From positions 48,563-112,562 of IMG/VR virus record IMGVR_UViG_3300035183_000460: DNA of 64,000 nt; one strand, given 5' to 3'. Shown here in pieces: positions 31,236 to 64,000 of the stretch (positions within the stretch are counted from its first letter, which is position 1; each line of letters begins with the position of its first letter). The DNA is from a virus. The notes below the pieces were generated by a model. That model was not told the DNA's origin. It ran no database searches and saw nothing but the letters and a program-made list of their open reading frames with translations. The position numbers and the translations under genes were made by a program.

Positions 31236-31919
31236 ATGGCTTTAAGATTATTACAACCAGGTACACAACCACTTGGTCAATTTGATGGTTATGATGCAGA
31301 TTTAACAGTCACCGGTCTGAAAGGTGGTGAAGTTGTTACTTTAGTTGGTTATCCTTTAACAGGTACTGATAAAGCAGCATCTGATGTTTTTGACGGTTAT
31401 ACTAACACGGGCTCACAAGAGAAGCGTGTTGTTGTTACAAAGAACCTTCCAGTTGGCGCAAAATTATTAATGTTAGCTGATGAAGGTACATCTGACTATG
31501 GAACAATACTTGGTTATGTAGTCGGTGGAACTGCCGGACAATCAGTTTCTGGTGGTGCCGTTCTAGGACCTCATACTGCAACTGGTTCTGGCAAAGTTAC
31601 TTGCTGGGATAAGCCAGGTCTATATGCTGTATCTCTAGATGCATGTGATACAAACGCATCTACCGGTTTGCAACCAACAAATACTACTTTAGCTTCAGGT
31701 GATTTGCTTTATGCAACATCATCTGGATTAATTACTCCAAATGCATCACTATCTTTCGCAGGTGCTGGACAAAAACCAATCGGACAATTTGTTTCTTTCG
31801 AGACAAATGGTTCTTTGGTAAATACTCCATCTAAACTTGCTCAGGCTTTAAATAGCCCAAGTGGTTCATCTGCAGTAGCAAAATCATTCAAGTGGGCAGT
31901 ATTCCACTTTAATCCATAA
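31236..31919 (+). CDS. Major capsid decoration / cement protein
   Basis: AAGGA RBS, G/T/S-rich beta protein, lies next to MCP and is followed by a terminator. Confidence 0.6.
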   Translation: MALRLLQPGTQPLGQFDGYDADLTVTGLKGGEVVTLVGYPLTGTDKAASDVFDGYTNTGSQEKRVVVTKNLPVGAKLLMLADEGTSDYGTILGYVVGGTAGQSVSGGAVLGPHTATGSGKVTCWDKPGLYAVSLDACDTNASTGLQPTNTTLASGDLLYATSSGLITPNASLSFAGAGQKPIGQFVSFETNGSLVNTPSKLAQALNSPSGSSAVAKSFKWAVFHFNP

Positions 31920-31940
31920 TATATAATAATTGAATAAATA

Positions 31941-31974
31941 AAAAAAAAGCCGGGATTTAATTCCCGGCTTTTTT
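31941..31974. terminator. Bidirectional intrinsic terminator
   Basis: aaaaaaaagccggga-tttaat-tcccggctttttt between convergent genes. Confidence 0.9.
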
Positions 31975-34376: not shown

Positions 34377-34420
34377 TTTTATGATCTTATGCCAAGAAAC
34401 CCACCAGCCTTGTGCTGGTG
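34377..34420 (+). repeat. Dispersed ~50-bp hairpin element, copy A
   Basis: ttttatgatcttatgccaagaaacccaccagccttgtgctggtg. Confidence 0.8.
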
Positions 34421-34438
34421 TATATATGTATATTATTG

Positions 34439-39129: not shown

Positions 39130-40626
39130 ATGACTGCATATGTGCGACAAAATGCGCTCGATCAAGCTCTTGATATAGCAGGTTCTTTGTTGCAGTCAGA
39201 TACAAGAATCCTATCTAACGAGCCAGATGGTTATGGTGCCCCAGTTGCTGGACAATCAGGTACAGATGGATATGTATCAGCAGTTAACGCAGGTATTGCT
39301 ACTATAACCGGTTTAACTGGTATGACTGTGCAATCTGTAGGTAGATTTTTAACTTTGGTAGATAGCTCAAATTCTGGTAACACCGGAACATTTTTGATTG
39401 TTGGTTATAATTCAGCCACTTCTGTTAATATTTCTAATGCTAATGCAGTAGTTAATACTTCAAACCCAATAATTTGGACTGAAAGAAATCCATATACTTT
39501 AGAAGACGATCTTAATTTTGCTCGTACAGATCGAAGATTAATTAAAGGTACTTCAACATTTTATAGCGATATTCCAACTTATCAGCGTCCAACTGCTATT
39601 GGTACTAACGTTCCTGCCAATTTAACAAATATTTCTGGTAAGACTTTGGATGCTCATGCATGGATAGTTAATAGAGTTTTTCGTGCTGATACTGTTGCAG
39701 TTGGTGATGGTTACACTACAATTACTGCAACTGGACAGTTACAATATGCTGATGCCATAGATAGGACTGGTATCCCAATTTGGGACGGATTTGATGCTGG
39801 AAATTGGGCAGCTACTTATGTAGAAATTATTAATCCTGTAACAGAAAATTCTTTAATTGCAGTTGGCGGATCAGTTGATGGTTATAGAATTTTTGGACGT
39901 ACTCGTCAAGGAACAACTGGTGTTGAGCCAAATAGCGTAGAAATTGAGTTTAGAGCTGTTCCAATGGGTGCAGATATTTCAACATCTGTAGCTTATACTT
40001 GGGACGGTTATCAACCAACAGTAGTTGATTATTATTATCCTTATCGAGAGAGAGCAGATCAATTAACGGAAACTGCTTTTAGAACAACATTAATAAATGG
40101 TTTGTTTGCAGATTCCAATAATTCCACTAATACAAACAGTATTTTACAGATTCTTGGATCTATTTCTGGAGATACTTATCTTACCGGCTTAACAAATACT
40201 GGCATTTATTATCCATTTAATAATTTGCCTGATGCAACACCTTCAGTTACTGAAGCATTAAATACACTTAATGCACAAATTGGCAATCGTAATTATACTG
40301 GAAACATTTTAACTGATGGTTATACTATTACTGCTTCATTACAGCAATTAGCTGATGCAATAGCTTCTGCTAATTTTGTAAGAATTATTGAGCGCCTTAC
40401 ATCTGATATTGCTGCTAATACAGCACATACAATTCCTGGTGGAAATACATATACCCCTGATCCGACAAATAATGGACAGAATTTAATTGTATATACAAGA
40501 GGAATATTACGTGATCCTGGACCTGTAATTAATGGAAATGATTATGCTGAAACTAGCACAACTCAAATCACATTCTATACAAAACAAAAATCAGGAGATC
40601 ATATTAACTACTTTATTTACGCATAA
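39130..40626 (+). CDS. Abundant-looking virion structural protein, Thr/Gly/Asn-rich, with 6 DGY motifs
   Basis: 498 aa of beta-rich composition, followed by its own terminator. Confidence 0.65.
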   Translation: MTAYVRQNALDQALDIAGSLLQSDTRILSNEPDGYGAPVAGQSGTDGYVSAVNAGIATITGLTGMTVQSVGRFLTLVDSSNSGNTGTFLIVGYNSATSVNISNANAVVNTSNPIIWTERNPYTLEDDLNFARTDRRLIKGTSTFYSDIPTYQRPTAIGTNVPANLTNISGKTLDAHAWIVNRVFRADTVAVGDGYTTITATGQLQYADAIDRTGIPIWDGFDAGNWAATYVEIINPVTENSLIAVGGSVDGYRIFGRTRQGTTGVEPNSVEIEFRAVPMGADISTSVAYTWDGYQPTVVDYYYPYRERADQLTETAFRTTLINGLFADSNNSTNTNSILQILGSISGDTYLTGLTNTGIYYPFNNLPDATPSVTEALNTLNAQIGNRNYTGNILTDGYTITASLQQLADAIASANFVRIIERLTSDIAANTAHTIPGGNTYTPDPTNNGQNLIVYTRGILRDPGPVINGNDYAETSTTQITFYTKQKSGDHINYFIYA

Positions 40627-40634: not shown

Positions 40635-40711
<77 letters not shown>

Positions 40712-41382: not shown

Positions 41383-41428
41383 TATTTTATTTAAAACATT
41401 CCATTCGATATTTTTGTATTATTATGAA

Positions 41429-42559
41429 ATGAATGGAATTCGTAAGGAAGATTTAGTTGATTTAGATATTATTGATGCATCTGAACTTGCTTCAGATGGT
41501 TATTCTGTTTATTTAACAACTACATTAGTTTCAACTACAAATGCCGGCAGTCTAGTTACTATTAATTTACCACAAGATGGTGAAGGGTTAATTACTGGTA
41601 AAGATCATCCATTATCACCAGGTGATAGAGTTTGGATAACCGGAACTTCCGGTGGTTTAGCCGATGGATATTATATTTGTAATAATGTAATTTCTGATAC
41701 AAGTTTTTCTGTAACATCTCCAATATTATCTTCTACTGGCGGTACAATATATTTTATGCATCCTGCAGGAGCATTTAATGTTGGATTTGATTTATCAAAT
41801 TATACAGCAATACATGTAACTCATAAAAATGTTCAAGAGGCTATTCAAGATTTAGATTTAGCTATTTCTGGATCTGGTGGAGGAATAACTGCATCTCAAC
41901 ATGAAACATTAAGGCAACTTATACATTTAGCAGATGGTGTTGGTGGACCATTTGAAGGATTTGCAACTAATGCATATCGTGAAGTTTTACCAATTAATTC
42001 GGCTTTTCCAACATCCATTATTTGGTGGAAAAATGCTGCTAAAACACATAAATATGTGGAAAAAACTATTACGTTTAATACAAATAAAACTCCAGCACTT
42101 ATTGAATGGAAAGTATATGGTACTGATGGATTTACTGTTTTAGCCACTGTCACAGATACGATAACTTATTCTGGTCCATTTGAATTATATAGAGTTCGTG
42201 GAATTATAGATAATACTATAGATTTTAGTAATCTAACAATAGAATCTCATAAATATGTTAGGCAGCTTATACATTTAGCAGATGGTGTTGGTGGACCGTT
42301 TGAAGGATTTACTTCTGGAGCGTACAGGGAAATATTGCCTATGGCTAGCCCATTTCCTACCTCTATTATTTGGTACGATAATAACACTAAAACTAAAAAA
42401 ATTGTTGAAAAAACAATTGTTTATAATACCAATAAAACCGTATCATTAATAACTTGGAAAGTATATGACATTGATGGAATTACTGTATTAGCAACAGTTT
42501 CTGATAATATGACATACTCAGGTATATTTGAAAATAATAGAACAAGATCGATAAGTTAA
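41429..42559 (+). CDS. Virion structural protein with a tandemly duplicated ~115-aa C-terminal domain
   Basis: RQLIHLADGVGGPFEGF...YRE.LP...FPTSIIW occurs twice. In-frame ATG 41429 is preferred as start. Confidence 0.7.
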   Translation: MNGIRKEDLVDLDIIDASELASDGYSVYLTTTLVSTTNAGSLVTINLPQDGEGLITGKDHPLSPGDRVWITGTSGGLADGYYICNNVISDTSFSVTSPILSSTGGTIYFMHPAGAFNVGFDLSNYTAIHVTHKNVQEAIQDLDLAISGSGGGITASQHETLRQLIHLADGVGGPFEGFATNAYREVLPINSAFPTSIIWWKNAAKTHKYVEKTITFNTNKTPALIEWKVYGTDGFTVLATVTDTITYSGPFELYRVRGIIDNTIDFSNLTIESHKYVRQLIHLADGVGGPFEGFTSGAYREILPMASPFPTSIIWYDNNTKTKKIVEKTIVYNTNKTVSLITWKVYDIDGITVLATVSDNMTYSGIFENNRTRSIS

Positions 42560-42572: not shown

Positions 42573-43925
42573 ATGGCAACTGATTCTCCCGTAGCAATAT
42601 TATTTAATACTGATGGTTATGAAGTTAATGTCAGACCAAACGTTACAATACCATCCGGCACTAGCGCTATTATTGCTGGAGGTTCAGATTCAGGTACTGC
42701 AAGATTTTTATCTGTTGATTCTTCTGGTAGACCTATTATTTCAGGAGCTGGTACAGCAGGAACACCTATTGGCGGAGTTGTTACTGTTCAAGGAATTTCT
42801 GGAGGTGTAGCAATACCTATTTCTGGCACTGTTACAGCATCTAATCCATCAGTTGGCGCTAATGGATCACCTATACTAGGTTCTTCAACTCAAATTGGAG
42901 TTTCTGATGGAACTAATATTCAGGTGCCAAGATGTTATGATTTAGATACAGGAAGTGGAACTCAATATAATTTAGGAGTTAATTTAAGAATTTCTGCAAA
43001 TGGTGGATCAGTAGAATTTGGTACAAATACGAACCCTATTCGTATTGATCCAACAGGTACTACAACGCAACCAATTTCTGGTACAATTACAGCCAATGCA
43101 GGAACTGGAAATTTTAATACTAATATTTCTCAGTATGGTGGCACTAATGTAGGCGCAGGAAATGCGATTCATGTGCAACCTGGAACTGGAGCAACTTTTA
43201 ACATAGCTGGCACTGTATCTGCCACTCAATCTGGTATTTGGACAGTACAGCCAGGAAATACGGCAAATACTACTCCTTGGTTAACTACTATCAGTCAAGG
43301 TGGTAACTCTGCCGCTGTAAAACCAGCTTCTACGGCAGCTGTTTCAACTGATCCGGCTTTGGTAGTTGCAACATCTCCTAATAATACAACATTTATAAGA
43401 CATAAAGAATTTGCTACTTTTACCGCGTTAGCTACAAATGTTACTCTTGCTAGTAACAAATCACTATTATCAATTGGTAATGCTTCAGGTAGTACTGTTA
43501 AATGTAAAATTCTTGAAGTCTATATTATTAATGTTCAATTGGTTGCTGTCACTGGCGTTGTAGTTAATTTTGAATTGCGAAGAGCAACCTCTCATACAGC
43601 AGGCACTCAAATTACAGCAATTGAAACAATGGAAACAACAGATAGTCTTAATCCAAATATTACTGTTAGAACAAATGCAACTATTTCAGGTGAATCTTCT
43701 AATTTGCTTTGGCGTACACTATTTAGTTCTGATGAATGGGCTGCAGGAACATTAGACCTTGACGGTATGGATCATATAAATCAAGCACTGTTTCCAATTT
43801 ATAGTAGAAAAGATCCATCTACTAAACCAATAACATTAAATGCAAATGAAGCGTTAACTATCAAATGTGCAACAAATACGACAGTTGGTACTTTTGATGT
43901 ATTTGTTGTGTTTACTCAGGAATAA
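42573..43925 (+). CDS. Fibre-like virion structural protein
   Basis: 450 aa, G/T/S-rich, with PISGTVT and QPISGTIT fibre-type repeats. Confidence 0.65.
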   Translation: MATDSPVAILFNTDGYEVNVRPNVTIPSGTSAIIAGGSDSGTARFLSVDSSGRPIISGAGTAGTPIGGVVTVQGISGGVAIPISGTVTASNPSVGANGSPILGSSTQIGVSDGTNIQVPRCYDLDTGSGTQYNLGVNLRISANGGSVEFGTNTNPIRIDPTGTTTQPISGTITANAGTGNFNTNISQYGGTNVGAGNAIHVQPGTGATFNIAGTVSATQSGIWTVQPGNTANTTPWLTTISQGGNSAAVKPASTAAVSTDPALVVATSPNNTTFIRHKEFATFTALATNVTLASNKSLLSIGNASGSTVKCKILEVYIINVQLVAVTGVVVNFELRRATSHTAGTQITAIETMETTDSLNPNITVRTNATISGESSNLLWRTLFSSDEWAAGTLDLDGMDHINQALFPIYSRKDPSTKPITLNANEALTIKCATNTTVGTFDVFVVFTQE

Positions 43926-43930: not shown

Positions 43931-44698
43931 ATGGTATCTTATAATGGTATAATAACGTTAAATGTATCTTGGTCTAGTTTAAAATCTATTGCTAGATCTA
44001 AAAATCTTAGTATTCAATACGAGCAAACTGAAAATGCTTATGAAATTTTTTGTTTAGATGGCAATGTTTGTTATAAGGCTATTATTTTTAAATTCTCTGT
44101 TCCTGATACAATTAATTTTAATCAAAGTACAAATGATGAAGACAAATTTGATTTTGAGACTAATTATAAAGATATTATTACTAATAAAAAAATTTCAGCA
44201 AATTATACTATTGCAACATACTCTGCTGTTGCTTTAAACTTTGCACCACCAACTACTCCAACTGATATTTTTACCATTTCTGGTAGTGATAGTAAGATAG
44301 TATATGTTAATAGAATAGTTATTACAGGAACTCAAAATTATGGTGCATTTAGAGACATTCTATTTATAAAAAGATCTACTAAAAATACTGGTGGTGCCTT
44401 TACTATATTAAAATCAATTCCATACGATTCTATTAGTCCTAATGCTACAGCGGAAGTTCGTGCATATACTGCAAATCCAATACTAGGAACCGCTATTGGA
44501 ACAATTTTTGCAGCTAAAGTTTTTATTCCTAGTAATAATGCTTTAGCATCACAAAATGATAAATATATAAATTTTGGTATAAATAATGGTAAACCGATTA
44601 TTCTTAGAGGTACAAGTGAACTACTTGCAGTAAACTTAAATTCTATTACAAGTCCTGGTAACTTAATAAGTATAAGCATTGAATGGACAGAGGAATAA
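43931..44698 (+). CDS. Virion protein; N-domain shared with 44700, C-domain similar to the C-terminus of 42573
   Basis: W..LK...L.IQ.E....Y.I...DG...NDEDK.DFE..Y, and KPIILRG..E.L...IEWTEE versus KPITLNANE.L...VVFTQE. Confidence 0.6.
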   Translation: MVSYNGIITLNVSWSSLKSIARSKNLSIQYEQTENAYEIFCLDGNVCYKAIIFKFSVPDTINFNQSTNDEDKFDFETNYKDIITNKKISANYTIATYSAVALNFAPPTTPTDIFTISGSDSKIVYVNRIVITGTQNYGAFRDILFIKRSTKNTGGAFTILKSIPYDSISPNATAEVRAYTANPILGTAIGTIFAAKVFIPSNNALASQNDKYINFGINNGKPIILRGTSELLAVNLNSITSPGNLISISIEWTEE

Positions 44699-44699
44699 T

Positions 44700-45875
44700 A
44701 TGCCTGTTGAATTTTCTAATAATCTGACAAAAAGACAATATGTTTGGAGTGAATTCAAAATACATCTTTCTGCAAGAAACGGCGCATTGCAATGTGAAAA
44801 ATTTTCAGATCATTATATGATTTGGTTTTATGATGGTCCAGAAGTGTTCATTTGTAATATTTGGATTGGACCTGTTCCACATGATATATCATTACAATGG
44901 AATTTAACACAAAAACAAAATGATGATGATAAAAAAGAATTTGAACAATATTATTTAAATACATGTAATTTGTCTATTTCTAAATTAGATAATACATCTA
45001 GATGTATAGTTGTTCCAGAACCAAGACTTGGTAATGAAGTAATTTATACTACTCACAATTTTTGTGATAAAGTAACTTGGTTTTCTACCAGTGAAAGAAT
45101 TAATGATGAAGTATTAACATCTAAAGATGGTCATGTATGGAAATCTGTTAATACTTATTGGATTGACATGATCTCAGGAAGAGTTCAAGATGATGATGGT
45201 TGGGTAGAACAACAAAGACAATTAAATCCGTCAGATCCTCATGGATACCAAGTTATTGTTAAAGTAGATGGAATTGAGAAAACAATGAGAGAACCATTTA
45301 TGGAAGATGGTGGTGATTACGAAGTTTTTTGGGAAGATGGCTACATCAAATCTTTTGAAGATTGGACAGGAAAAATTGTAACAGCGTCATATTCTAAAGC
45401 TATAGATAGCACATTTATTTTATCTCCATTGCCAGGTACCAAATTAAATATTGAGGCTGCCGAGGCAGATTTTACTACAGATGTAGAAATGTGTGATTCT
45501 ATTGAGTACAATATTTATGGTTATGCTAATATTTTTGCTCCAGAATTAGGACTGCCTGAAGGTACTAAAATTCCTCTTAAAAGAACTGTATACAAAAGAT
45601 TATCTCAAATTTTTAATGAAGCTATTGGTGCGTATCCATTGGTAGAAATTCATGGATCAAACCCTTATTATAATGCTATGAACAATAAAGATCGCAGAAA
45701 AGTTTCTCGTGGAATTTCTTCATATTTACAATCTATTCCATTTAGATATGGTACAATAAGACCACTTCAATCTAGCTTAGGTCTAGAAGTAAGAATAAAA
45801 TTAACTCATAATATAGAGTTTAAAGGAGATATGGCTGTATGTACTTTCTATTGTATATCAGAACCAGAAATTTAA
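44700..45875 (+). CDS. Virion protein, N-domain paralogue of 43931
   Basis: ATG 44700 with GAGGA RBS. WSEFK...LQCE...YMIWFYDG...NDDDKKEFEQYY. Confidence 0.65.
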   Translation: MPVEFSNNLTKRQYVWSEFKIHLSARNGALQCEKFSDHYMIWFYDGPEVFICNIWIGPVPHDISLQWNLTQKQNDDDKKEFEQYYLNTCNLSISKLDNTSRCIVVPEPRLGNEVIYTTHNFCDKVTWFSTSERINDEVLTSKDGHVWKSVNTYWIDMISGRVQDDDGWVEQQRQLNPSDPHGYQVIVKVDGIEKTMREPFMEDGGDYEVFWEDGYIKSFEDWTGKIVTASYSKAIDSTFILSPLPGTKLNIEAAEADFTTDVEMCDSIEYNIYGYANIFAPELGLPEGTKIPLKRTVYKRLSQIFNEAIGAYPLVEIHGSNPYYNAMNNKDRRKVSRGISSYLQSIPFRYGTIRPLQSSLGLEVRIKLTHNIEFKGDMAVCTFYCISEPEI

Positions 45876-46830: not shown

Positions 46831-47178
46831 ATGGTAGTATATACTAATATAGGTAAAAAAATACTTGGTAGAGATTTTAATTTTTTTCAAAAAAAAGCAA
46901 TTTCTAATACTACTTTTGGCACAGTGGTTGATGGATATAAGCCAGATATGATTATTACTGTTGCTACTAAATATGGAGGAGTAATATTTAATACAGAAGG
47001 AACTGGAACCAATACAGTTGAATATTCTTTTAATGGCAACACTGTTCACGGTGAATTGGTTCCTGGAACAAACAGAGCAACTTTATATTTTAGAAATAGA
47101 AATATTAGTATGATATGGTTTAGGGTTAAACAAGGAAGTTCTGGACCAATTACTGTAAGTGTTGAGGCTTGGGAATAA
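46831..47178 (+). CDS. Small beta-sandwich virion protein
   Basis: GGAG RBS, 115 aa, VEYSFNG and one DGY. Confidence 0.6.
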   Translation: MVVYTNIGKKILGRDFNFFQKKAISNTTFGTVVDGYKPDMIITVATKYGGVIFNTEGTGTNTVEYSFNGNTVHGELVPGTNRATLYFRNRNISMIWFRVKQGSSGPITVSVEAWE

Positions 47179-49380: not shown

Positions 49381-49579
49381 TACCGTTAAATAAGCTTAGT
49401 TCATTATCATATTTAAAAATATTTTCAGCACATATATAAGCACATTTAAAATATTTTTTTTTACATATCCTCACAAATCTCATATTCATATTCTAGCATT
49501 TTTGTAGAAAATATTTTTACATGATTGTTTGCTCATATGTAAGTGTATATCATCACATGTATATTTTAGGAGACGATCC

Positions 49580-50479
49580 ATGGTTATAAAATCAAGAGGG
49601 GAATTTGTTGATGTTACTGAGCAAATTAATCTAACAGTTCAATTTAAAGATAATTTTGGCAATCCAAAAGACACTGATACTTTCCCTACTATATCTATTC
49701 AACAACCTAATGGATCTGTGTTATTTTCGCCTACCTCTGTAGGTGTTACTAAAATTGCTACAGGAAAATATTCTTATATATTTACGGTTCCTATTAATGG
49801 TCCTTATGGAGTATTTTCTGATATTTGGGTTGGCTATATAAATGGATTCAGAATAGAAGCATCTTTTAATTTTGTAGTATCTGCTACTCAAATGCCAGGA
49901 ATTAATTCTGACGGCTATACTAAATTAGGAGATGACCCAGGATTCCAATACTCTCAAGCGGCAATTAATAATATTAATAAATTAATTAAAATGTTGCGAG
50001 CTAGGTTAAATAGCTCTGGAAAAGCAAAGAAAAAAGATGCTTATGGTAATGTTATGTATGTTACTTGTGATATCTATTCTGTAGATATGTTAACTACATT
50101 TTTGGCAACAGCATTAAGTGATTTTAATCAAATACCTCATTTTACTATGTTTTCTTTTGATGATGATGCATTTGTTGCTCAATTTGGAGAAATTTTGGTT
50201 GAAGGCGCTACTTTATATGCTTTAGCGTCTAAGGCTTTAATTGAAAGGGGTCGTGAATTTCAAATTACTGATAATAGCATAAATTTTAATCCTCCAACCG
50301 TATCAGAACTGTTAAATACTCAGTATAACACTTTATTAACTAATTATTGGGAAAGATTGAAGTTTATTAAGAATTCATTGAAACCAAGCCCATTGGGACT
50401 TGGAGTATTTGGTATGACAAGTGCTATAAATCCAGCAATTAGTCGCCTACGACACTTACGAGCAAGACGCATATTATAA
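49580..50479 (+). CDS. Putative neck / head-tail adaptor protein with an N-terminal Ig-like domain
   Basis: AGGAG RBS before ATG 49580. Helical C-domain FLATALSDFNQIPHFT...FQITDNSINF is adaptor-like. Function is inferred. Confidence 0.55.
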   Translation: MVIKSRGEFVDVTEQINLTVQFKDNFGNPKDTDTFPTISIQQPNGSVLFSPTSVGVTKIATGKYSYIFTVPINGPYGVFSDIWVGYINGFRIEASFNFVVSATQMPGINSDGYTKLGDDPGFQYSQAAINNINKLIKMLRARLNSSGKAKKKDAYGNVMYVTCDIYSVDMLTTFLATALSDFNQIPHFTMFSFDDDAFVAQFGEILVEGATLYALASKALIERGREFQITDNSINFNPPTVSELLNTQYNTLLTNYWERLKFIKNSLKPSPLGLGVFGMTSAINPAISRLRHLRARRIL

Positions 50480-53282: not shown

Positions 53283-54860
53283 ATGGTTTATTATCTTTCA
53301 AGAGTAAATGAAGGATTAATTTCTTGTCATTCAAAGGGTGATGGGTACACTATCACTTTAAAATGGTCTTCGGCATATCCTTCATCTTCAACAAATAAAG
53401 TGGCGTATCATATTTATATGTCTACCGATGAGAGTAAAGTTTTTTCGGAAGGTGTAAAGTATGTTGTAGATGGTTATACACAAGCAGATATTATTGATTT
53501 AAATCCAGGACAACTATATCATTTTGCAGTTAGAGCAGTTGAATATAATCCAAATATAGTAAGTATAAATAGTTTGCCTGTCGCTTATAATAATTTAAAA
53601 GTTTATCCTAATTCCTTATTAAGAAATAATATTTCAAGTTCTGATACTATTATTCCACTTGTTGATGTTACAGGTTTTCCTTCTTATGGTATTATTCAGG
53701 TTGGTGTTGAATTTATTAATTATTTATCAGTTGATACCTTTAACAACAATTTAGTTTTAACTAATGCCTCTTTGCAACGTGGGTATTTAAATACGAAAGC
53801 AACTATTCATAATATAGATGGATATGATGGTTATGTTACTTGGACGCCACCATATTGCTCTTATATTTTGGGCAGAGAGGAAATGAATACTAGAATTTTC
53901 CCATGTCAAAATAGATTTGATATAAATAATTATCAATATACTGTTACTGACGGATATCACCAAGTTATAAAGGATTTATTAACGTCAGATTTATCTGGCA
54001 GTGATGAATATAATAAAGATTTTAATTCATATGATTATGCCGGGTGGCATCGTACTGATCCTGTACAACTATTAAACGGAGAATGTGTTGGTAGCTATAT
54101 TGGAGGAGAACAATTTTGTGCAGATGGATATGAAACCGTAGGATCTGTTATACGCGGCATGTCTTTACAAGAACATAATAATCAAAGACAAGAATTGTTG
54201 CTCAGTATTACTGGTGAGCCTGTTGTATTGATTAAACGCATGAGGACAGGTATTACTTGTGATTGTTTTACTCCTGGACAAGAATATCCTGATGATAGAT
54301 GTGAGAAATGCCATGGAACTAAATTTGTCATAGGATATGAACAATATTTTAATCCAAGAAGATCTGATGGGCGAATTATGGTTCGTTTCAGTCCGGCAGA
54401 TGAAGATCTTAAAATGCAAGAGGCTGGATTAGAGTCTGATCTTCAAGCAGATGTTTGGACATTAACTGTGCCAACTATAAAAGACAGAGATATTTTAGTT
54501 AGATTTGATCAAGATGATAATGAAGAATTTAGATATGAAGTTTTATCTGTAAATAGAAATAAAACTATAAGTAGACTTCAGGGTGGTCAAAAATTAAGAG
54601 TTCAAAGAATTCGTAAGTTTGATCCAGCTTACCAAATTCGTGTTTTCAGAAATACAGAAATGTTTCCTAAAGTTATATCTACCGGAATGTCTAGTGTTAA
54701 TGGAATTCCATTGCATAGTCATACTTTAACTATAAATGAAAAAATAACTTCAATTACTCAAATAAATCAAACAACTGGAATTTCTTTTGGACATACACAC
54801 TCTGTTATTAATGGTGTTGTACAGCCTGCATTAGGACATACTCATAATATAATTATTTAA
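53283..54860 (+). CDS. Putative head-closure / neck protein (FN3 domain, Zn finger, HxH tail) with 6 DGY motifs
   Basis: FN3-like LKWS...YHIY...LNPGQLYHFAVRA. GEPVVLIKR..CDC...CEKCHGT..GY. WTLTVPTIKDRDILV. HSH/HTH/HTH at the C-terminus. Confidence 0.6.
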   Translation: MVYYLSRVNEGLISCHSKGDGYTITLKWSSAYPSSSTNKVAYHIYMSTDESKVFSEGVKYVVDGYTQADIIDLNPGQLYHFAVRAVEYNPNIVSINSLPVAYNNLKVYPNSLLRNNISSSDTIIPLVDVTGFPSYGIIQVGVEFINYLSVDTFNNNLVLTNASLQRGYLNTKATIHNIDGYDGYVTWTPPYCSYILGREEMNTRIFPCQNRFDINNYQYTVTDGYHQVIKDLLTSDLSGSDEYNKDFNSYDYAGWHRTDPVQLLNGECVGSYIGGEQFCADGYETVGSVIRGMSLQEHNNQRQELLLSITGEPVVLIKRMRTGITCDCFTPGQEYPDDRCEKCHGTKFVIGYEQYFNPRRSDGRIMVRFSPADEDLKMQEAGLESDLQADVWTLTVPTIKDRDILVRFDQDDNEEFRYEVLSVNRNKTISRLQGGQKLRVQRIRKFDPAYQIRVFRNTEMFPKVISTGMSSVNGIPLHSHTLTINEKITSITQINQTTGISFGHTHSVINGVVQPALGHTHNIII

Positions 54861-55012: not shown

Positions 55013-56317
55013 ATGGTTCAAAATCCAAATTATACTAGAGGTCAAGGCAGATTAGTAACTGATCGTTTTGACTTTGAAAAACATGTAAATGGATCCGATT
55101 TTCATCATAAAGCTGAACATATAGAATTATCGCCATCCATAACTATTGATGGATATTCTCGTACAAATGTACGTAGTGCTATACAAGCATTGGCTAATAT
55201 TGCTTTTCCACCAACAATTGTAGATGCATCTGCTAGTGTTAAAGGTATTTTGAAATTAACTAATGATTTGGGCGGAACAGCAAATTTACCTAGGGTAGTA
55301 GGACTACAGAACTTGCCTGTTAGTGCATTAGCACCAAGTAATGGGCAGGTATTAACATGGAACGGTTCTGCGTGGGCGCCAGCAAATAATACTAATACAT
55401 TTGTAGCCGGTGGAGATCTTACAGGAAATAATATTAGTCAATTTGTTTCAAATATTTCTGGAATATTTGGGGTTGCAAATATATCTGCACCAACGGTTAG
55501 TTATTTAAATTCTGTTTCTTCTCCAACATTAACTCAAGCAGATTCTACATTATCTTCAGGACAAAATCTAACTATTAGAGCTCAAAGTACTACATTTACA
55601 AATGGAAATGGCGGAAATCTTATATTAAGTGGTGGTGCTAAAAACGGCACAGGATTAAAAGGTGGAGTTAAATTACAACTTAATAATTCTGCGACAGACA
55701 CTTTATTACAAGTTATCGAAGTTGCTTCTAATAGAAGAGTTGTTGGATTATTTAAACAAACTATTACTGCCAGCCATGTTCCATCTGGTGATATGGTTAT
55801 GTATATTGGAGATACTACTACACCACCAACATTTGATCCTGCTGGAGGCGTGCTTTTATATTCTGAGGCAGGCGTTGCTAAAGTTAGACAAGGATCAGAT
55901 ACTATAGCAATAGGATCTATTCCAAATCCAAGCGTTTGGGGTCCTGTTGGTGCTCAAGTAAGAACGAGTCAACATCAATTTACAACTACTGATGGATCTA
56001 CTGCTACTGGAGCTCAATATACATTACCAGATAATTCTACTATTAAATTAGATGCAATTGTAGTAGCCCGTCGTACTGATGCTGGTTTTACAGACCAAAC
56101 TGCTCAGTTTAATTTAAGTATGGGATATGTTACTTATAATTCAAATACAACGGAGGTTGGAACAGTAACTATATCAGATACTAGAAATACTACTGGTGCC
56201 ACAACTTGGACAGCAACAATAGATAGATCTAGTAATATAGCTAGAGTAAGGGTTACTGGTGAAGCTAGTAAAACAATTAATTGGTTTATATTATTGCAAG
56301 CAACAATAGGATCATAA
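55013..56317 (+). CDS. Tail-fibre-like protein
   Basis: GAGG RBS. ASASVKGILKL, APSNGQVLTWNGSAWAP and GGNLILSGG fibre motifs. Confidence 0.7.
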   Translation: MVQNPNYTRGQGRLVTDRFDFEKHVNGSDFHHKAEHIELSPSITIDGYSRTNVRSAIQALANIAFPPTIVDASASVKGILKLTNDLGGTANLPRVVGLQNLPVSALAPSNGQVLTWNGSAWAPANNTNTFVAGGDLTGNNISQFVSNISGIFGVANISAPTVSYLNSVSSPTLTQADSTLSSGQNLTIRAQSTTFTNGNGGNLILSGGAKNGTGLKGGVKLQLNNSATDTLLQVIEVASNRRVVGLFKQTITASHVPSGDMVMYIGDTTTPPTFDPAGGVLLYSEAGVAKVRQGSDTIAIGSIPNPSVWGPVGAQVRTSQHQFTTTDGSTATGAQYTLPDNSTIKLDAIVVARRTDAGFTDQTAQFNLSMGYVTYNSNTTEVGTVTISDTRNTTGATTWTATIDRSSNIARVRVTGEASKTINWFILLQATIGS

Positions 56318-56318: not shown

Positions 56319-58958
56319 ATGCCATCTGGTCTAGGAATGACATTAATACAGAGGTTTACTGTAAAAACAACTACTACAATATTATTAAGCAAAAGATCTG
56401 GAGATAACGCAAATGTTTCGGCTTTAGTTTGTAATCAGCCAATAACTTACATAATTAATGTAAGCTCTTCAATTTCAATTCCTGATGGTTATATATATTT
56501 AATAGACGTAAATACTAATTCTGTAATTGGAGGATCTTCTTTTACTGGTGGCTCTAATAGTATTAATGTTGAAATTACACTATTAAACGGTCTTGATGTA
56601 ATATCTAACGTATATGCTCTTAAGGCTAAATATGATGGATATGTAAGACCTCCACCATTAATATCATTAGCGCCAAGCGAATCCCCTGTTTTTTATCAAG
56701 ATGTATTACCAGATGGTGCCATTCCAGGATATTTGCAAATTGATTCAATTACTACAACAGCTACAGCTGTAGAGTCATTTTTAAATGACTTCGATATTAC
56801 TGCCACCTTATCTCATGGAGCCACTGGATTTCCAGTAGTACTGCCAATTACAAATATAGTTAGTGATACTGTTAATGTATCAGGTGCCACTAACACTAGT
56901 CCAATAGAAATTACAACTGGCTCTAATCACGGATTAGTAACAGGTAGTAATGTAAGTATTTCTGGTGTTGGAGGTAATACTGCAGCTAATGGAATTAGAA
57001 CAATTACAGTAACTGCGCCCAACAAATTTACTCTTAACGGATCAGTCGGAAATGGAAATTATACTTCTGGAGGAACTGTAACAAAAGAGGCAAAAGTTAC
57101 TACAAGTTCTACACATCATTTATTAGTTGGTCAGGTTACAAGAATTACTGGATCTGGAGTGTCTGCATATAATGGTTTTTTTAAAGTTGGACCATCTTTT
57201 CTTACATCAACTACTTTTTCACTATCTAATGTCTTTAATACCGTTTCAGCTGGCGCTAATCCTATTGCAATTAGTTTAGTTTCAAATACAAATCCTGCAG
57301 TTATAACAACTTCTGTTCCGCATAAATTACAAAGTGGAGATTATGTAAGGTTAGAAAATATTTATACAGTGCAAGGTGTGTTTCATATTACTGCTTATTC
57401 TAGCATTAATGGAATTCGGCAAGTAAATGTAATTGATGATTATAAATTTTCAATTCCAGTACCTTCTGATGGATTTTTTTCCTCAGGACATGGAGAAAAA
57501 ATATTTCCATCTTTAAGCGGACCTATTCCAAATACAGATATTAATGATGGTTATATAGATTTTTATGGAATAGAAAACGATTCAAATAATAGTAAGTTTT
57601 TAATTGCTGCAAATGTTCCAGTTTTTAATAATTCTGCTACGGTATCGGCAGATGGTTATGATGGTTATTCAATGGTTTGGCCTGCTCCTTCAGGAACATA
57701 TGGAATAGAGGCTATATATAAACCATCGTCTAGTTGTTTTGCACAATTTAATTCTCCTGATACATTTAGTTCTGCATTAAAAAAAGTCACATTAAATGGA
57801 ATAATATCTGAAATGACGTTAACAGCATCTCCGTATATTATAACTGATGCTAGCAATAACTCACCAATAAGGATAACTACTTCTTTTCAACATGCTTTAA
57901 ATAATAATGATTATGTTAGTATATCTGGAGTAGTTGGTAATACTGCAGCAAACGGTACATTTAAAATTACTACATTGAGTAGTAATATAAGTGCTACTAC
58001 AGTATCTTCACCAATACAAGTAACTACTTCAAGTAATCATAATTTTGTTACTGGACAGTTAGTTACTATTGTAGGTGTAGATGGTAATCCGGCAGCAAAT
58101 GGTGTTTGGACAATTACAGTTACTGGACCAACGACGTTCACATTAAATAATTCAAGTGGTTCATCTAATAGTGGTGTTGGTGGAATAGCTTATAGCTCAA
58201 ATACATTTACATTAAATGGAACTACAGGGAATGGATCTTACATTGGAGGCGGAATTATAACGGTTATAGATGGTAGAGATATATCTGATGCCTATACAGT
58301 CACACCAATAGAAATTACCACTAGTTTATCACACGGACTTTCTAATGGAGATTCTATTACTATTACTGGTACTTCTGCACCAGGTACAAATGGTACTTGG
58401 AATGTGACAGTTATTAACTCAACTAAGTTTTCCTTAAATGGTTCAACTGGAGAATCTACGCCACTTCATTACAATGATGGGATAGTAAATATTGCTAATA
58501 ATAATTTGTTGCGTGCAGATTTTCCAAATGGTCCTCCAGGTACTCCGGGTTATGTTACTTTTGAAAAGATATCGCCATCTGTAGGCAATTTAGGCACATC
58601 TACTATAGCTAATAGATTTGCTTATTTGCGAGTAACACCTTCTATGTGGGTAGGAACTGGAACATTTACAGTTAAAGCTACATATACTTCATCTTCGAAT
58701 ACAGTAGCAGGCGCCTCCAATACTTCACCTATAGTAATTACTACAGGATCTGCTCATGGTTTATCAAGCGGTCAAATTGTAACAATAAGTGGAGTTACAG
58801 GAAATACTGCTGCAAATAATACTTGGGTAATAACTGTTGGTAATAACCCTACTGAGTTTTCTCTAAATGGATCAACAGGAAATGGCTCTTATGGTGGTGG
58901 AGGAACAATTAAAGTTGCTGTTGCAGCAGTGCCGAAAACAATTGATGTTCTTGTATGA
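56319..58958 (+). CDS. Virion appendage protein: Ig-like (Big_3-type) domains with 7 small beta-barrel repeats (E1-FCCH-like)
   Basis: Repeat consensus xSPIxITTxxxHGLxxGxxVxIxGVxGNxAANGxxxITV...FxL occurs 7 times. 5 DGY motifs. Confidence 0.7.
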   Translation: MPSGLGMTLIQRFTVKTTTTILLSKRSGDNANVSALVCNQPITYIINVSSSISIPDGYIYLIDVNTNSVIGGSSFTGGSNSINVEITLLNGLDVISNVYALKAKYDGYVRPPPLISLAPSESPVFYQDVLPDGAIPGYLQIDSITTTATAVESFLNDFDITATLSHGATGFPVVLPITNIVSDTVNVSGATNTSPIEITTGSNHGLVTGSNVSISGVGGNTAANGIRTITVTAPNKFTLNGSVGNGNYTSGGTVTKEAKVTTSSTHHLLVGQVTRITGSGVSAYNGFFKVGPSFLTSTTFSLSNVFNTVSAGANPIAISLVSNTNPAVITTSVPHKLQSGDYVRLENIYTVQGVFHITAYSSINGIRQVNVIDDYKFSIPVPSDGFFSSGHGEKIFPSLSGPIPNTDINDGYIDFYGIENDSNNSKFLIAANVPVFNNSATVSADGYDGYSMVWPAPSGTYGIEAIYKPSSSCFAQFNSPDTFSSALKKVTLNGIISEMTLTASPYIITDASNNSPIRITTSFQHALNNNDYVSISGVVGNTAANGTFKITTLSSNISATTVSSPIQVTTSSNHNFVTGQLVTIVGVDGNPAANGVWTITVTGPTTFTLNNSSGSSNSGVGGIAYSSNTFTLNGTTGNGSYIGGGIITVIDGRDISDAYTVTPIEITTSLSHGLSNGDSITITGTSAPGTNGTWNVTVINSTKFSLNGSTGESTPLHYNDGIVNIANNNLLRADFPNGPPGTPGYVTFEKISPSVGNLGTSTIANRFAYLRVTPSMWVGTGTFTVKATYTSSSNTVAGASNTSPIVITTGSAHGLSSGQIVTISGVTGNTAANNTWVITVGNNPTEFSLNGSTGNGSYGGGGTIKVAVAAVPKTIDVLV

Positions 58959-59432: not shown

Positions 59433-62400
59433 ATGAGTAATTTTCCGTTTGACATAGATGATGATGTCACATTACCACCAGTTAATAATAATATTACAGA
59501 GATAGGCGCAGAGGCAATCAATGCTGTTCGTGATGCCGTTTTCTCAATAGAAAAAGAAATAGGTATTGGTGCATCTGGTTCTGCCGGTAGTATAGCCGCT
59601 CGTTTAGGCGTTAGTTTAGATGCCGCAGGAAATATAAAGCCATCGGCTATTACATCTATGGGATTAGTAACGCTTCCAATTTATAATTTTCATATTGCGG
59701 AAAATGCTCAAATTTTAGAATCAAAATTAAAGCTTGACTACAGAACATCTGATTTATTTAATTATATAAAAGATTTAGTCCGTGATGTAAATTCTTCAAT
59801 TGGATGGATTAATGCCACAGGCATGAAATTAGATCCTCATATTTTTGGCGCATTATATCGTCATGAATTAAGTCATATTGATGTTAATGCTTCAAGTAAT
59901 AATTATTTAAAAAATAAATTTGATGTATTAAGAGACAATCTAAATGCATTTAATTTATTAAATGATATAAATTCAGAATTAGTTAAACACCAAAAATTAG
60001 ATGGATCATATAATACAAGTTCTCATATAATTACAGATAATGGTAGTATATTACCTGCAAGATATGCTCATCCCGCATCTGGTATATTTTTAAATACAAG
60101 CAGATTTTCTTCAATTCCACAAACGGCACAAGATTTACAACAATTTGTTGAATTTATTGATAGCGCAAGCATTTTCTTATATGGAACTAGAATTCAAAAT
60201 TTATATTCAAATGGAATTTCTAAATTCTCTAGATCTTCAACTTTAACGTTTGATGGATATGGTCAGACTATAATTCCTCCAACTAAGGCAACAACTTATC
60301 TTTTAAATGGATTAAGCAGTGTCCCTGTTGATAATATTGATTATGGCGATGATATTATAGAATTTAAGCCATCTGTTACAGAATTATCAAACAATACATT
60401 TGATTCTAAATTTCAATTAGTCAAAGCTGGTGATATTTTACGAATAAATTACGGATCTCTTGAAACAACATTTATAATTAAAGAAAAAAAATACATCCAG
60501 AATGGATCAAACAAGAAATTCTATGTTAGAATAAATGGCAAAAATTTGCTCGCAACTACAACTGCCAGTGCCAGGATTGATAAGCCATTAGTTAATCAAA
60601 ACAAATATGGTGTATTGGCTGTATCTGCAGCCAATAACGAATCTAGCTTAAATCCAAGCTTGATTGTTACCAGTCCTAGATCTGCAATGGCTTTAGGTCT
60701 TGGATTTAATCCTAATTTAATTGATTCTACTCACTATTTATTATATTTGGCTATATATCCTACTGGTAATCCTAGTGATGGCTATACTATTTTGCCTGGC
60801 ATTGATATTACTGGTAATTTAGGATCTACTCCAGGACAATATACATTATATTCTATAATTGAAGCAACTAATAACGCTTTTAGGAAAAAAGGATATAATT
60901 TTAGATTTAATGCTTTTCAATATGGTGGAGAATTTGGTATTGCATTAGATCCATATAATAACGCATCATTTTCAATCATAAGTGGTGTAGTTGATCATAC
61001 TGGTGGATATAACCAATCTGGTACATTATTAAATTTTCCAAATAACGTAGTTGGTGTATTCGGATCTAATGGCAAACAGGCTCCTGATGCATTGGGGTTT
61101 GGACCTAATGGTTCTGGTGTTGCAAGTCCACTGCCACAATCAAGTTATTTAACTCCTGAACAAGCTATTAGATCTACTAGAGTTTTTGTTCCGCTAAGAA
61201 GAAATACATATTATGTAGATGGTACAGAACGCGATCGATTACTTACTGATATTGGTCAAGTTCTGGATGTTTATGGAGATGGCTATTGGGTGGCTACAAT
61301 TGATGATGTAACTCAGCCATCATTAACTCGTGTTGCTACTAAGTTTAGAATACGACAAGATTTAAGCACATCTAAATTGAAAGCTGGTAAGACAATTGTA
61401 GTACAAGGATTGAATTCTTCTGCTGGAGATATTATTAATTATGGTAGATATGTAATCGATAGCGTAGCTTTTGATGCTTGTCCTGACCCAATAACAGATA
61501 TTGTTGTTTATGATTCAGTTCATGGAGTTGGTGCAACACCTTATCCAACATTACCAGTTGGATCACAAGTTAGATTATATTTTGGATCTGATTCTGTTGG
61601 ATTTAATTCAGAAAATTCTTCTGACATAACTTCTGTTGTTGCTGGATTTAAGCGTCATTTTGAAGTTTTGGCTGATAAAAATGGTGATGTTATTACTCAT
61701 GAAAGAGCCAGATTTAATGCTGGAGGATCTAACTTAACAATTAATGGTATAACTTTATATAGTTCACCTAATTTAAGTAATATTTCATTAATAAAAGTTT
61801 CGCCAAAATTAAGAGGGTATAATTTCTTTTCAGGAAATAACTCTATAAATAAAATTTCATTAAATATTATTAATTTTAATTCTTCATCAGGATCATTTGA
61901 TGGGTATTTAGCATCTTATGATGGAACTAATCTTACTAGATTGGGACCTATTACTTCTGGTAGAATAGGAGAAGTAATAAGATTTTACGATGAAACAAAT
62001 ATTGATTATATTGATTTAATATTTGAATTTAATAATTTAGGTAGTTTTTCAAATAATATAGCTGATATTCAGCTATTTCCAACGCTCATGCTAGATAGAG
62101 AATTATTACCACTAGCAACGTGTCAATTAGACGATAGCACCAAAAAAGTAGCATACATAAGAGATGAAAGACAATTTGGTAATGTTAGTGAAGAAGAATT
62201 ATCAACTTCAGCAATACAATTCATTAATGCAGGAGATCGTAATCTTCATGAAAATGGAGTAATTAGGGGTTTTGATTTAGCCAATGATATAGCGAATCCA
62301 GTTAAAGAACAAATTAGTATATCTGGTGGTGTTGCATTAGTAAATGGAAAACTAATACAGATAAATAATACTATTACTTCAATACCTATTATTAAAGAAA

Positions 62401-64000
62401 AAGATCCTTTTTCATCTGTTGAATATAATATTAATTGGGCACTTTGTATTAATGATAAATCTGAATTACAATCAATTCCATTGTTAGATTATGACTCTTC
62501 TTTTGGTACACCAAACAATCCAAATAGAAAATTTTTGGCTAGAAATCTATTTAATGGTTCATTGTATAACCTTGATGCAATGACATTTTCTCAAATAATA
62601 AATAAAAGGAAAGATCTTTGCATCTTATACATCGTTTCATCTACTGTTACTGGTAGTGGATTATCTACAGATATTTCTTTATCTGTGACAGATGCTAGAA
62701 GATATGTTAATGATGAAGGCTCTAATTTACCACTTAAATTGACATCTGATAAATCACAGGGTAACTTCAGAAATCCTGAGGCTATATTAAATTGGATTAA
62801 GTTTAATAGTACATTTAATAGTAAAGCAATTTTAAAAGGAGCTAATGCTACAATTAATACTGGATTGAATTTGAATTTCTCTAGCACAGTTTATGTTGAT
62901 GGTGAAAATAATGGTTCATTAATATTTAATGCTCCTATAACAATAGGATCTAATTTAAATGTTAAAGATTTAACTTTGACTTTTAATCAGTCATTAACTA
63001 TAACATCTGCAGTAAACAATTTAATATTTGATCATTGTACATTAATTATAGATAATGTGTCTGCAGGTTCAACAGTATTCAATTTTAATAACGCAAATAA
63101 TGTTATATTTAAAGATTGTACAATTAATGTTAGATATACTAGTGCGCCATTAGGTACTGTATTTAATATTGAAAATTCTAATAACATTAATTTTATTAAT
63201 ACTAGTGTATCTGGAATTGGATTATCACCTATATTCCCTGGTACTTCTAATCAAGAAGGTAATCTATTTAATGTAAATAACTCTCCAGGATTATTAATAG
63301 ATAATTGTATATTTAATGGTAACTTTGTTAGATATATGACTATATCTGATTCTTCCAATTTACAGTTGAAAAATAGTATAATTACATCAAGTCATATAGC
63401 AACAAATGATAGTGGATGGAGTTCTACAGATTATGTAAATAGTGCTTCTGGATTAATTTATTCTAATATTGGTGCAACATTATTATCTGATATTATTATA
63501 GATAATTGTACGTTTAATTTTTCTCCAATATCTGCGTCTTCAAATAGGTGGCCAATTATTAGTTTTGAATTAAGTGCTACAACATCTATACTTAAAAATT
63601 TAGTAGTTAAAGATTGTAAATTTAATAATACAAATACCGGCATTGATATTGTAAATGGATACATAGATGATAAAAGACCTGCAATTTCTATTATTAATTC
63701 TAATGCATCTGGTACGTCTACAAGTAATAGTTCGCAGCCATTATTAATCAACGCAGATATAGTTAACAATGTTTGTAATAGAAATCAATCAATTATTTTA
63801 AGTTCTAAGACGGATGGTTCTGGAATAATGACTTATCCGGGATTATCTGTAGTAAATTGTAATATTTCTGGAAATATATGCGGCACAATAGGTTATTGGG
63901 TATCTGCAGGAACACGAGTTAATAATGTTCCAACATCTACAAATTATAATAGTAAAGGTACCGGTTTAATAATTTACAATAATGATTGTCATTATGTAAC
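59433..64000 (+). CDS. Giant tail fibre/spike or baseplate protein with a parallel beta-helix (partial, >1520 aa, missing from the ORF track)
   Basis: MSNFPFDIDDDVTLPPVNNNITEIG... appears open to the window end. Pectin-lyase-type repeats FDHCTL, FKDCTI, IDNCIF, IDNCTF, VKDCKF after ~62.9 kb. Confidence 0.8.
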   Translation, partial: MSNFPFDIDDDVTLPPVNNNITEIGAEAINAVRDAVFSIEKEIGIGASGSAGSIAARLGVSLDAAGNIKPSAITSMGLVTLPIYNFHIAENAQILESKLKLDYRTSDLFNYIKDLVRDVNSSIGWINATGMKLDPHIFGALYRHELSHIDVNASSNNYLKNKFDVLRDNLNAFNLLNDINSELVKHQKLDGSYNTSSHIITDNGSILPARYAHPASGIFLNTSRFSSIPQTAQDLQQFVEFIDSASIFLYGTRIQNLYSNGISKFSRSSTLTFDGYGQTIIPPTKATTYLLNGLSSVPVDNIDYGDDIIEFKPSVTELSNNTFDSKFQLVKAGDILRINYGSLETTFIIKEKKYIQNGSNKKFYVRINGKNLLATTTASARIDKPLVNQNKYGVLAVSAANNESSLNPSLIVTSPRSAMALGLGFNPNLIDSTHYLLYLAIYPTGNPSDGYTILPGIDITGNLGSTPGQYTLYSIIEATNNAFRKKGYNFRFNAFQYGGEFGIALDPYNNASFSIISGVVDHTGGYNQSGTLLNFPNNVVGVFGSNGKQAPDALGFGPNGSGVASPLPQSSYLTPEQAIRSTRVFVPLRRNTYYVDGTERDRLLTDIGQVLDVYGDGYWVATIDDVTQPSLTRVATKFRIRQDLSTSKLKAGKTIVVQGLNSSAGDIINYGRYVIDSVAFDACPDPITDIVVYDSVHGVGATPYPTLPVGSQVRLYFGSDSVGFNSENSSDITSVVAGFKRHFEVLADKNGDVITHERARFNAGGSNLTINGITLYSSPNLSNISLIKVSPKLRGYNFFSGNNSINKISLNIINFNSSSGSFDGYLASYDGTNLTRLGPITSGRIGEVIRFYDETNIDYIDLIFEFNNLGSFSNNIADIQLFPTLMLDRELLPLATCQLDDSTKKVAYIRDERQFGNVSEEELSTSAIQFINAGDRNLHENGVIRGFDLANDIANPVKEQISISGGVALVNGKLIQINNTITSIPIIKEKDPFSSVEYNINWALCINDKSELQSIPLLDYDSSFGTPNNPNRKFLARNLFNGSLYNLDAMTFSQIINKRKDLCILYIVSSTVTGSGLSTDISLSVTDARRYVNDEGSNLPLKLTSDKSQGNFRNPEAILNWIKFNSTFNSKAILKGANATINTGLNLNFSSTVYVDGENNGSLIFNAPITIGSNLNVKDLTLTFNQSLTITSAVNNLIFDHCTLIIDNVSAGSTVFNFNNANNVIFKDCTINVRYTSAPLGTVFNIENSNNINFINTSVSGIGLSPIFPGTSNQEGNLFNVNNSPGLLIDNCIFNGNFVRYMTISDSSNLQLKNSIITSSHIATNDSGWSSTDYVNSASGLIYSNIGATLLSDIIIDNCTFNFSPISASSNRWPIISFELSATTSILKNLVVKDCKFNNTNTGIDIVNGYIDDKRPAISIINSNASGTSTSNSSQPLLINADIVNNVCNRNQSIILSSKTDGSGIMTYPGLSVVNCNISGNICGTIGYWVSAGTRVNNVPTSTNYNSKGTGLIIYNNDCHYV

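Follow-up and report, generated by a model that had tools for sequence, protein, structure and literature searches.

Protein glycosylation is directed in several described systems by three-residue codes that appear and vanish at surface positions of unrelated proteins: N-X-S/T (PglB; the cytoplasmic NGT/HMW1C) and the Bacteroidota motif D-(S/T)-(A/I/L/V/M/T). Mycobacteriophage virions are glycosylated by phage-encoded glycosyltransferases (GTs; Freeman et al., 2023, Cell Host Microbe, as cited in PMC12619734), and huge phages of aquatic origin, the subject of the 'moraphage' paper, have four core groups of GTs (PMC12619734). Here we analyse the last 64 kb of the 112.5-kb linear viral contig IMGVR_UViG_3300035183_000460 (positions 48,563 to 112,562; the window, 64,000 nucleotides), in which the tripeptide Asp-Gly-Tyr (DGY) is likewise spread over unrelated proteins. 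It is about 20 times commoner than chance on the neck, fibre and head-decoration proteins of this phage and its clade. Our favoured reading, to which we give a rough probability of 0.4, is that DGY is a tyrosine glycosylation sequon read by the clade's own GTs, an association which is confounded by phylogeny.

With a completeness of 26% (CheckV), the contig makes up roughly one quarter of the genome of a ~450-kb phage. Its closest cultured relative, and a distant one, is Bacillus phage G (Donellivirus gee, 497.5 kb); related genomes and records reach 336-481 kb. The major capsid protein (MCP; 33297-34313) has gp27 of phage G as its best cultured match, with 52.6% identity, and the portal is 33% identical to its phage G counterpart. 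The DGY-rich loci make up a clade whose MCPs are at least 75% identical.

Enrichment of DGY in the structural genes

Among the 55 main open reading frames (ORFs) translated from the window, 12 carry DGY, 34 times altogether and always from 31236 onward. The number expected from composition is 1.78; 2000 per-protein shuffles give a mean of 1.66 and a maximum of 8, and a first-order model, in which the motif is itself already included, predicts 5.9. No other tripeptide comes close in enrichment, the z of DGY being 24 and that of the runner-up below 8. The 27 ORFs of the head module before 31.2 kb hold 27 DG and no DGY, the MCP has no DG whatsoever, and the 80 kb of the contig outside the DGY-rich region add only two DGY. 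In ORFs 31236, 39130, 48886 and 53283 the DG dipeptide is followed by Y in 18 of 20 instances, and the binomial p for Y given DG is 8e-25 in the region versus 0.79 for the remaining genome. The sequence-only reading of the window had arrived at about 34 DGY in 12 ORFs against 1-2 expected, with the same 18 of 20 and 27 to 0 figures, and had proposed the comparison with shuffled proteins; its totals and per-ORF counts are reproduced here, with three ORF starts placed slightly differently (41414, 44679 and 49529).

All three residues are needed, and in this order. The region has NGY in 2 of 69 instances of NG, SGY in 0 of 80, EGY in 0 of 21 and four DGF versus 34 DGY, and D precedes 34 of its 55 GY. 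N-G and F, then, do not behave as D-G and Y do.

At the level of DNA, GAYGGNTAY has 35 matches on the plus strand, of which 34 share the frame of the ORF, and two on the minus strand; the first 31 kb are free of it. The Gly codons at DGY (GGT 17, GGA 10, GGC 5, GGG 2) match the genome's own usage, and synonymous codons differ even at an invariant DGY site. Because the codons vary and the matches are in frame, selection must act on the protein, as the sequence-only reading had argued. A DNA motif such as a restriction, methylation or recombination site was tried and rejected, as it failed the test of frame- and strand-independence. A mutational by-product, be it of a nucleotide motif, gene conversion or compositional drift, would draw on the preference of low-GC (guanine plus cytosine) genomes for GAT, GGT and TAT codons. 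We regard it as extremely improbable: the restriction to one frame effectively refutes it, the wobble positions vary, neither DNA nor protein is conserved around DGY, the enrichment holds across GC contents from 28% to 44%, and the other 80 kb of the same genome are without it.

The 12 carriers, all on the plus strand, are as follows:

31236..31919 (+), 227-residue Gly-rich protein, DGY at residues 17 and 53
39130..40626 (+), 498-residue fibre-module protein, DGY at residues 33, 46, 193, 250, 292 and 396
41414..42559 (+), 381-residue fibre-module protein, DGY at residues 28 and 84
42573..43925 (+), 450-residue fibre-module protein, DGY at residue 14
44679..45875 (+), 398-residue protein, DGY at residue 220
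46831..47178 (+), 115-residue protein, DGY at residue 34 in an indel-rich loop
48886..49239 (+), 117-residue beta-rich protein, DGY at residues 23, 28, 32 and 51 (SDGYRFDGYVDGY)
49529..50479 (+), 316-residue protein, DGY at residue 128
53283..54860 (+), 525-residue neck-type protein with an N-terminal fn3 domain, DGY at residues 20, 63, 179, 182, 223 and 281
55013..56317 (+), 434-residue Gly-rich protein, DGY at residue 46
56319..58958 (+), 879-residue protein with FCCH/Ig-like repeats, DGY at residues 56, 106, 410, 445 and 448 (the last two as DGYDGY)
59433..63998 (+), giant protein of at least 1522 residues, its ORF open at the contig end, DGY at residues 274, 449, 616 and 823

Most of these are plausibly virion proteins, whose exposure is likewise plausible, on evidence that covers some of them. 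For the first proposal that all 12 belong to the outer virion, fold, family or gene position speaks in some cases only: 53283 (neck fold and fn3 domain), 56319 (Ig-like repeats), 31236 (gene position) and the fibre module from 39130 to 44679. Pfam and PHROGs are nearly blank on the DGY proteins. The product of 31236 is probably a head-decoration protein, judged by its gene place upstream of that for the MCP: phage G likewise has a decoration gene in this place, gp26 (capsid decoration) immediately preceding gp27. There is no sequence match between 31236 and gp26; clade homologues of 31236 retain 1-2 DGY. A single opposite-strand ORF (31973-33109, minus strand) lies between this candidate decoration gene and the MCP gene. 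The 39130 family, with 808 representatives, has a conserved N-terminal stretch of ~330 residues and variable C-termini, as is typical of fibres; a PDB profile search returned no match for it, and its AlphaFold2 model from nine sequences, with a predicted local distance difference test score (pLDDT) of 41, was unusable.

The carriers differ in how firmly their sites are held. In 41414 two sites are present in 8 of 8 relatives and seven more have low occupancy (six in one sequence each, one in two); the single site of 49529 is kept in 9 of 9 relatives. The N-terminal DGY of 42573 is conserved, and two relatives have a 1222-residue form of this protein with 12 DGY. Relatives of 44679 have 2-4 DGY elsewhere in the protein, those of 48886 have 1-3 each, distributed over seven columns altogether, and homologues of 59433 have 5-6, with six sites at an occupancy of at least 5 of 8. 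The loop of 46831 reads VVDGYKPD in the window and APDGYTVVDGYGPD in locus L004, and is a gap in six relatives. In 56319 the FCCH-like repeats can be delimited at 186-262, 319-380, 509-623, 655-713 and 796-865, and no DGY falls inside any of them; the earlier placing of its DGY at a PxG turn of the Ig domains is thus not confirmed, all five sites being outside the delimited repeats.

Turnover and lineage restriction of the motif

Across the ortholog groups DGY occupies 71 independent alignment columns with near-random flanks, in which beta-branched residues are weakly enriched and no Ser, Thr or Asn is required. Genomes and loci were classed as users and non-users by their DGY/DG ratio. In the 39130 family DGY is spread in users over at least 25 columns, most of them sparsely occupied, where the non-users have AGE, SGQ, DGQ, NGT or ATS, with T, A, G, S, N or E in the position of the Y; the presence of such polar or small residues implies that the fold is independent of DGY. 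A tree built from the fibre N-domain mixes users with non-users, and how much DGY a protein has tracks its genome background. For DGY-free representatives, a scan of viral contigs with P0001 gave no match. DGY is found within insertions too, and shows a modest excess near indels (41% vs 33%). The motif is hence gained and lost at non-homologous positions, a behaviour for which the sequence-only reading had suggested the homologues be inspected, and the enrichment is not accounted for by one repeated fold, an explanation which that reading had named as fatal to its proposal. Furthermore, D and Y are coupled: all fetched proteins of users have 475 DGY, 29 DGF, 446 xGY and 522 xGF (odds ratio 19), versus 26, 26, 270 and 350 in non-users (odds ratio 1.3).

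The loci of relatives were fetched with 39130 and 53283 as queries, and in all 24 of the first-fetched ones (GC 33-44%) DGY is enriched 10-20-fold. As the user classes are themselves based on the DGY/DG ratio, counts over whole genomes provide independent evidence: 74 observed versus 7.3 expected in record G001, 49 versus 5.6 in G003 and 74 versus 15.8 in G015 (359 kb). In G015 the motif is limited to the structural blocks, where one of the DGY-bearing giant proteins is a Baseplate_J protein, and to two genes for Kelch propellers, with ~240 kb of other genes at background. Over 74 loci the share of DG that continues with Y has a bimodal distribution: it is 0.25-0.56 in 31, all of which are within the clade, and 0-0.08 in 27, with 12 intermediate.

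The fibre module (38403-44698; genes 38403, 39130, 40750, 40972, 41414, 42573 and 44679) is a mobile cassette, which is common to G004, G005, G007 and G008 at 27-69% identity (47-59% for 39130) in the presence of almost no other shared genes. The four unrelated phages with this module have DGY at observed/expected values of 6/5.6, 8/6.0, 15/9.8 and 8/6.9, so that the same module with and without the motif constitutes a built-in natural control. Composition, or a general trait of phage structural proteins, was rejected as an explanation on the ground that non-user phages and phage G are at expectation.

Two members of the clade depart from the pattern. G006, with an MCP 86% identical, has no DGY among the 24 DG of four fibre-module proteins (one of them, of 1636 residues, matched over 85 residues only), and its neck and giant proteins retain the motif; we read this as a recent acquisition of the module from a non-user, with conversion to DGY pending. 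The fibre module of G010 (L033) is almost devoid of the motif, with 2 DGY in 41 DG. Phage G is at background over most of its genome (17 of 435 DG), with a mild excess in its giant proteins (NC_023719.1, 316-348 kb, L216-L217; 14 of 71 DG, p 4e-5) that may go back to an exchange of modules or represent this trait in a weaker form.

The neck-type protein 53283 permits a closer view of the sites. Its AlphaFold2 model (pLDDT 80.6) has the fn3 domain and a domain matching neck proteins of phages 812, Pam3 and T4. Sites 20 and 63 form two-residue beta-hairpin turns of the fn3 domain, with D-G at both loop positions, and the other four (179, 182, 223 and 281) are in coil or low-confidence loops. In the family of 101 homologues, where 456 of 748 DG are DGY, site 223 is invariant (occupied in all 101), four sites have an occupancy of 66-87% (88 sequences at site 20, 86 at 182, 83 at 281 and 67 at 179), and several are sporadic, among them 63 (16 sequences) and 36 (11). 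At the conserved sites replacement of Y by F is rare, and F is found where D is absent too (SGF, NGF and AGF at site 179). The C-terminal half of this protein has four Cys (C326, C328, C340 and C343) and three HxH pairs (H478/480, H504/506 and H519/521), all invariant in the 101 homologues; on a neck-type fold, this cluster looks like the metal-binding tip of trimeric spikes and fibres.

These sites bear on a purely structural preference, in which a D-G type I' turn with the following Tyr would stabilise the beta-hairpins of long-lived extracellular proteins and no reader would be needed. The two fn3 sites are hairpin turns of the classic two-residue kind, within the clade several sites do not vary, and the beta-branched residues in the flanks and the mild excess in phage G, which has no GT cluster, would suit it as well. 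In Kelch repeats the turn ahead of the GG motif is usually DG-K/R. The two Kelch proteins of G015, far from the structural block, have DGY in 5 of 5 DG (L171:9016-10263) and 2 of 3 DG (L170:12129-13055), and in three blades of the former DGY replaces the usual residues at that turn (DGYIYMFGG). We nevertheless hold this reading to be unlikely: N-G is an equally good turn and common here but is hardly ever followed by Y (the 2 of 69 above), Y is not exchanged for F (the odds ratios of 19 and 1.3), homologues at 47-69% identity fold without DGY, with E, Q, T or A in place of the Y, DGY is absent from the beta-rich head proteins of this phage, and neither the tandem DGYDGY nor DGY inside insertions is a feature of hairpins.

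Taken together, the data show selection on the motif as a unit, in this lineage alone; turns and loops have gained it repeatedly, and its carriers can fold without it. Irrespective of mechanism, this is a clean case of lineage-specific selection on a short linear motif. That it is lineage-specific, order-specific and turning over disfavours chance, composition, a DNA signal and a plain turn preference and argues for a clade-specific reader, and we consider it probable that DGY has some kind of function in recognition.

Candidate enzymes and readings of the motif

In G015 a cluster of genes, of which the part from the GT4 to the dehydratase spans 300.4-308.0 kb, begins 87 bp past the last DGY-rich giant gene, in this order:

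GT4 (381 residues)
GT2 (237 residues)
homing endonuclease
Fpg-like protein
unannotated 330-residue ORF
GT2 (280 residues)
nucleoside-diphosphate (NDP)-sugar 4,6-dehydratase
TubZ-like tubulin
GH25 lysozyme

The GT cluster follows the DGY-rich genes in G001 and G006 too. Of 15 fetched hit loci, nine reach upstream, and all nine show the same synteny, even where the GTs are only 44% identical; non-users are without the cluster. GT2 genes are found in 6 of 6 large clade genomes versus 0 of 7 non-user genomes, four of them complete, and GT1/GT4 in 5 of 6 versus 0 of 5. The best PDB sequence matches of the 237-residue GT2 include GalT1 of S. parasanguinis (5hea, E 1e-5), a match generic for GT2; indeed, all that the PDB sequence search with the cluster GTs gave were matches generic for GT2 and GT4. 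In the ESM Atlas the two proteins of the cluster that have no annotation matched viral hypothetical clusters only. The tubulin gene, TubZ/PhuZ-like, lies directly past the GTs in clade relatives (L183:8059-9417; G015 308059-309417) and has a phage G homologue at 24% identity.

This cluster is the sole clade-specific enzyme set found that fits by both function and position, and for this reason we rank the glycosylation sequon first. On the same side, the contig of the window encodes an NTP-transferase and an RmlD/epimerase in its positions 1-49 kb. DGY, for its part, has the traits of a sequon, being a short consensus that is enriched on its target proteins and turns over. Under this reading the clade would install and maintain DGY on the exposed virion proteins, namely those of the head decoration, neck, baseplate and fibres, where it would be used as an acceptor site by the cytoplasmic GT4, the two GT2 and the NDP-sugar 4,6-dehydratase. 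The sugar would be attached to the Tyr hydroxyl, with the Asp-Gly turn serving for recognition, and the finished virion would bear a glycan coat. More tentative still is the scheme in full, by which a cytoplasmic phage system O-glycosylates Tyr in a strict Asp-Gly-Tyr context and coats the whole outer virion, while acquired fibre modules are gradually 'sequonised'.

Several points weigh against a glycosylation sequon. The association of GTs with DGY is effectively that of one clade versus all else, and is confounded by phylogeny; a clade member without GTs was not found. The GTs could equally serve the glycosylation of DNA or of the host surface. To our knowledge no protein glycosyltransferase has a D-G-Y site, and the known sequons accept at Asn, Ser or Thr, whereas DGY offers Tyr or Asp only. 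Phage G shows its mild excess in the giant proteins and yet is without the cluster, and the invariance or near-invariance of several sites in the 53283 family would suit a structural role as well. Finally, the window and its contig have no clear GT: the contig stops inside 59433, before the place of the cluster in relatives. The search for glycosyltransferases and kinases that the sequence-only reading had suggested found the former next to the DGY-rich genes of clade relatives, with none clear in the contig itself and no Hanks kinase in six clade genomes.

The evolution of the sites and the D-Y coupling would suit any kind of reader, including one that binds DGY instead of modifying it. Lectins usually bind sugars through an Asp paired with an aromatic residue. 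A motif for docking or ligand binding would present the Asp carboxylate and the Tyr ring on a tight turn, as many weak sites deriving avidity from their copies; conceivable ligands are glycans of the host surface, metal ions and a coating protein of the phage. The location of sites in loops and turns and the tandem forms DGYDGY and DGYRFDGYVDGY agree with such multivalent binding; however, no candidate partner was identified, one binding role for head-decoration, neck, baseplate and fibre proteins is hard to imagine, and the adjacent GT cluster would be left unexplained. We judge docking to be improbable.

The strict need for the Tyr hydroxyl and the Asp would also be explained by other chemistry of these residues, performed by a phage or host enzyme: phosphorylation, nucleotidylation, sulfation, oxidative cross-linking of Tyr or isoaspartate formation at Asp-Gly. 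The head module has one gene that might belong to such a system:

17032-17766 (+), tyrosine/dual-specificity phosphatase family (PF03162, E 2.8e-10; also PF13350 and PTP-SAK)

This gene is conserved in the clade (homologues in G001-G003, G010, G012 and G013) and may encode a packaged or ejected enzyme. It is present in 3 of 3 user records versus 0 of 6 non-user records, the G006 contig not spanning that region. As a discriminating factor it was rejected, and is a clade marker only: G010 has it along with its nearly DGY-free fibre module, so the gene does not track DGY use. Neither Hanks kinases (Pkinase) nor sulfotransferases (Sulfotransfer_3) had a match in six clade genomes, and N-G, the faster former of isoaspartate, is not linked to Y. 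Such chemistry is in our view quite unlikely.

The modification or docking code that was first proposed is, then, supported in part: the protein-level enrichment proved real, and a GT cluster was found nearby in the clade. Were tyrosine glycosylation correct, no earlier code for protein glycosylation in bacteria or their viruses would have been directed at tyrosine, and this would be the first phage to mark its whole exposed surface via a minimal motif. The coat could shield the virion or tune adsorption, and the three-residue tag with its matching enzymes would be a portable device for protein engineering.

The remaining genes of the contig are of several kinds. The structural region is broken up by genes of homing-endonuclease type (LAGLIDADG at 34412-35332 and 50521-51516, HNH-like at 47200-47514), and a cold-shock protein gene is found at 47526-47756. 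Within the fibre and neck region, 45939-46802 (+) encodes a patatin-like phospholipase (PF01734, E 8e-27), with homologues in G001, G003, G006 and the non-user G007. Contig positions 1-49 kb (L025-L027) encode two ClpP, a topoisomerase, a Thg1-like enzyme, ribosomal protein S21, DksA, trigger factor, DnaJ, peptide deformylase and Pol III alpha, with a TnpB-like (Cas12f TNB) fragment at the contig start; ARAGORN detected no tRNA or transfer-messenger RNA in these first 49 kb.

Comparison with known systems

The literature searches agree with the sequence-only reading that no system of this kind has been described, and in full texts nothing combined 'DGY motif' with 'phage' or 'DGY' with 'tail fiber'. 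Phage G, the closest cultured relative, differs from the clade in that DGY is mostly at background and no homologue of the GT4/GT2/dehydratase cluster is found, GT matches being sub-threshold only. The mycobacteriophages resemble the clade in having GT genes that adjoin the structural genes and an outer virion surface as the presumed target; their glycans are located on the C-terminal tails of capsid and tail-tube subunits, and no short sequon is known for them. The DGY phage, in contrast, has an MCP without DGY and a strict internal tripeptide over many proteins, and is known from sequence alone.

Among the sequon systems, the Bacteroidota O-glycosylation motif begins with Asp, as DGY does. 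With the exception of NGT/HMW1C, these systems are periplasmic and use lipid-linked glycans; the synthesis of phage proteins, by contrast, is cytoplasmic. Glycosyl transfer to a Tyr hydroxyl is established by glycogenin, by Photorhabdus PaTox and Yersinia Afp18 acting on Rho, and by the S-layer of Paenibacillus alvei, and the enzymes that use this acceptor include cytoplasmic ones of the GT-A type. None of these systems has a D-G-Y consensus or marks a whole structural set, and their enzymes (GT8, toxin GTs or an oligosaccharyltransferase) are unlike the GTs of the clade, among which GT8 was not searched for. The serine-rich-repeat adhesins of streptococci, whose acceptors are Ser/Thr repeats, unlike DGY, have the same enzyme set as the clade: a GT4 (GtfA/B) that initiates and GT2-type enzymes, such as GalT1, that extend the glycan.

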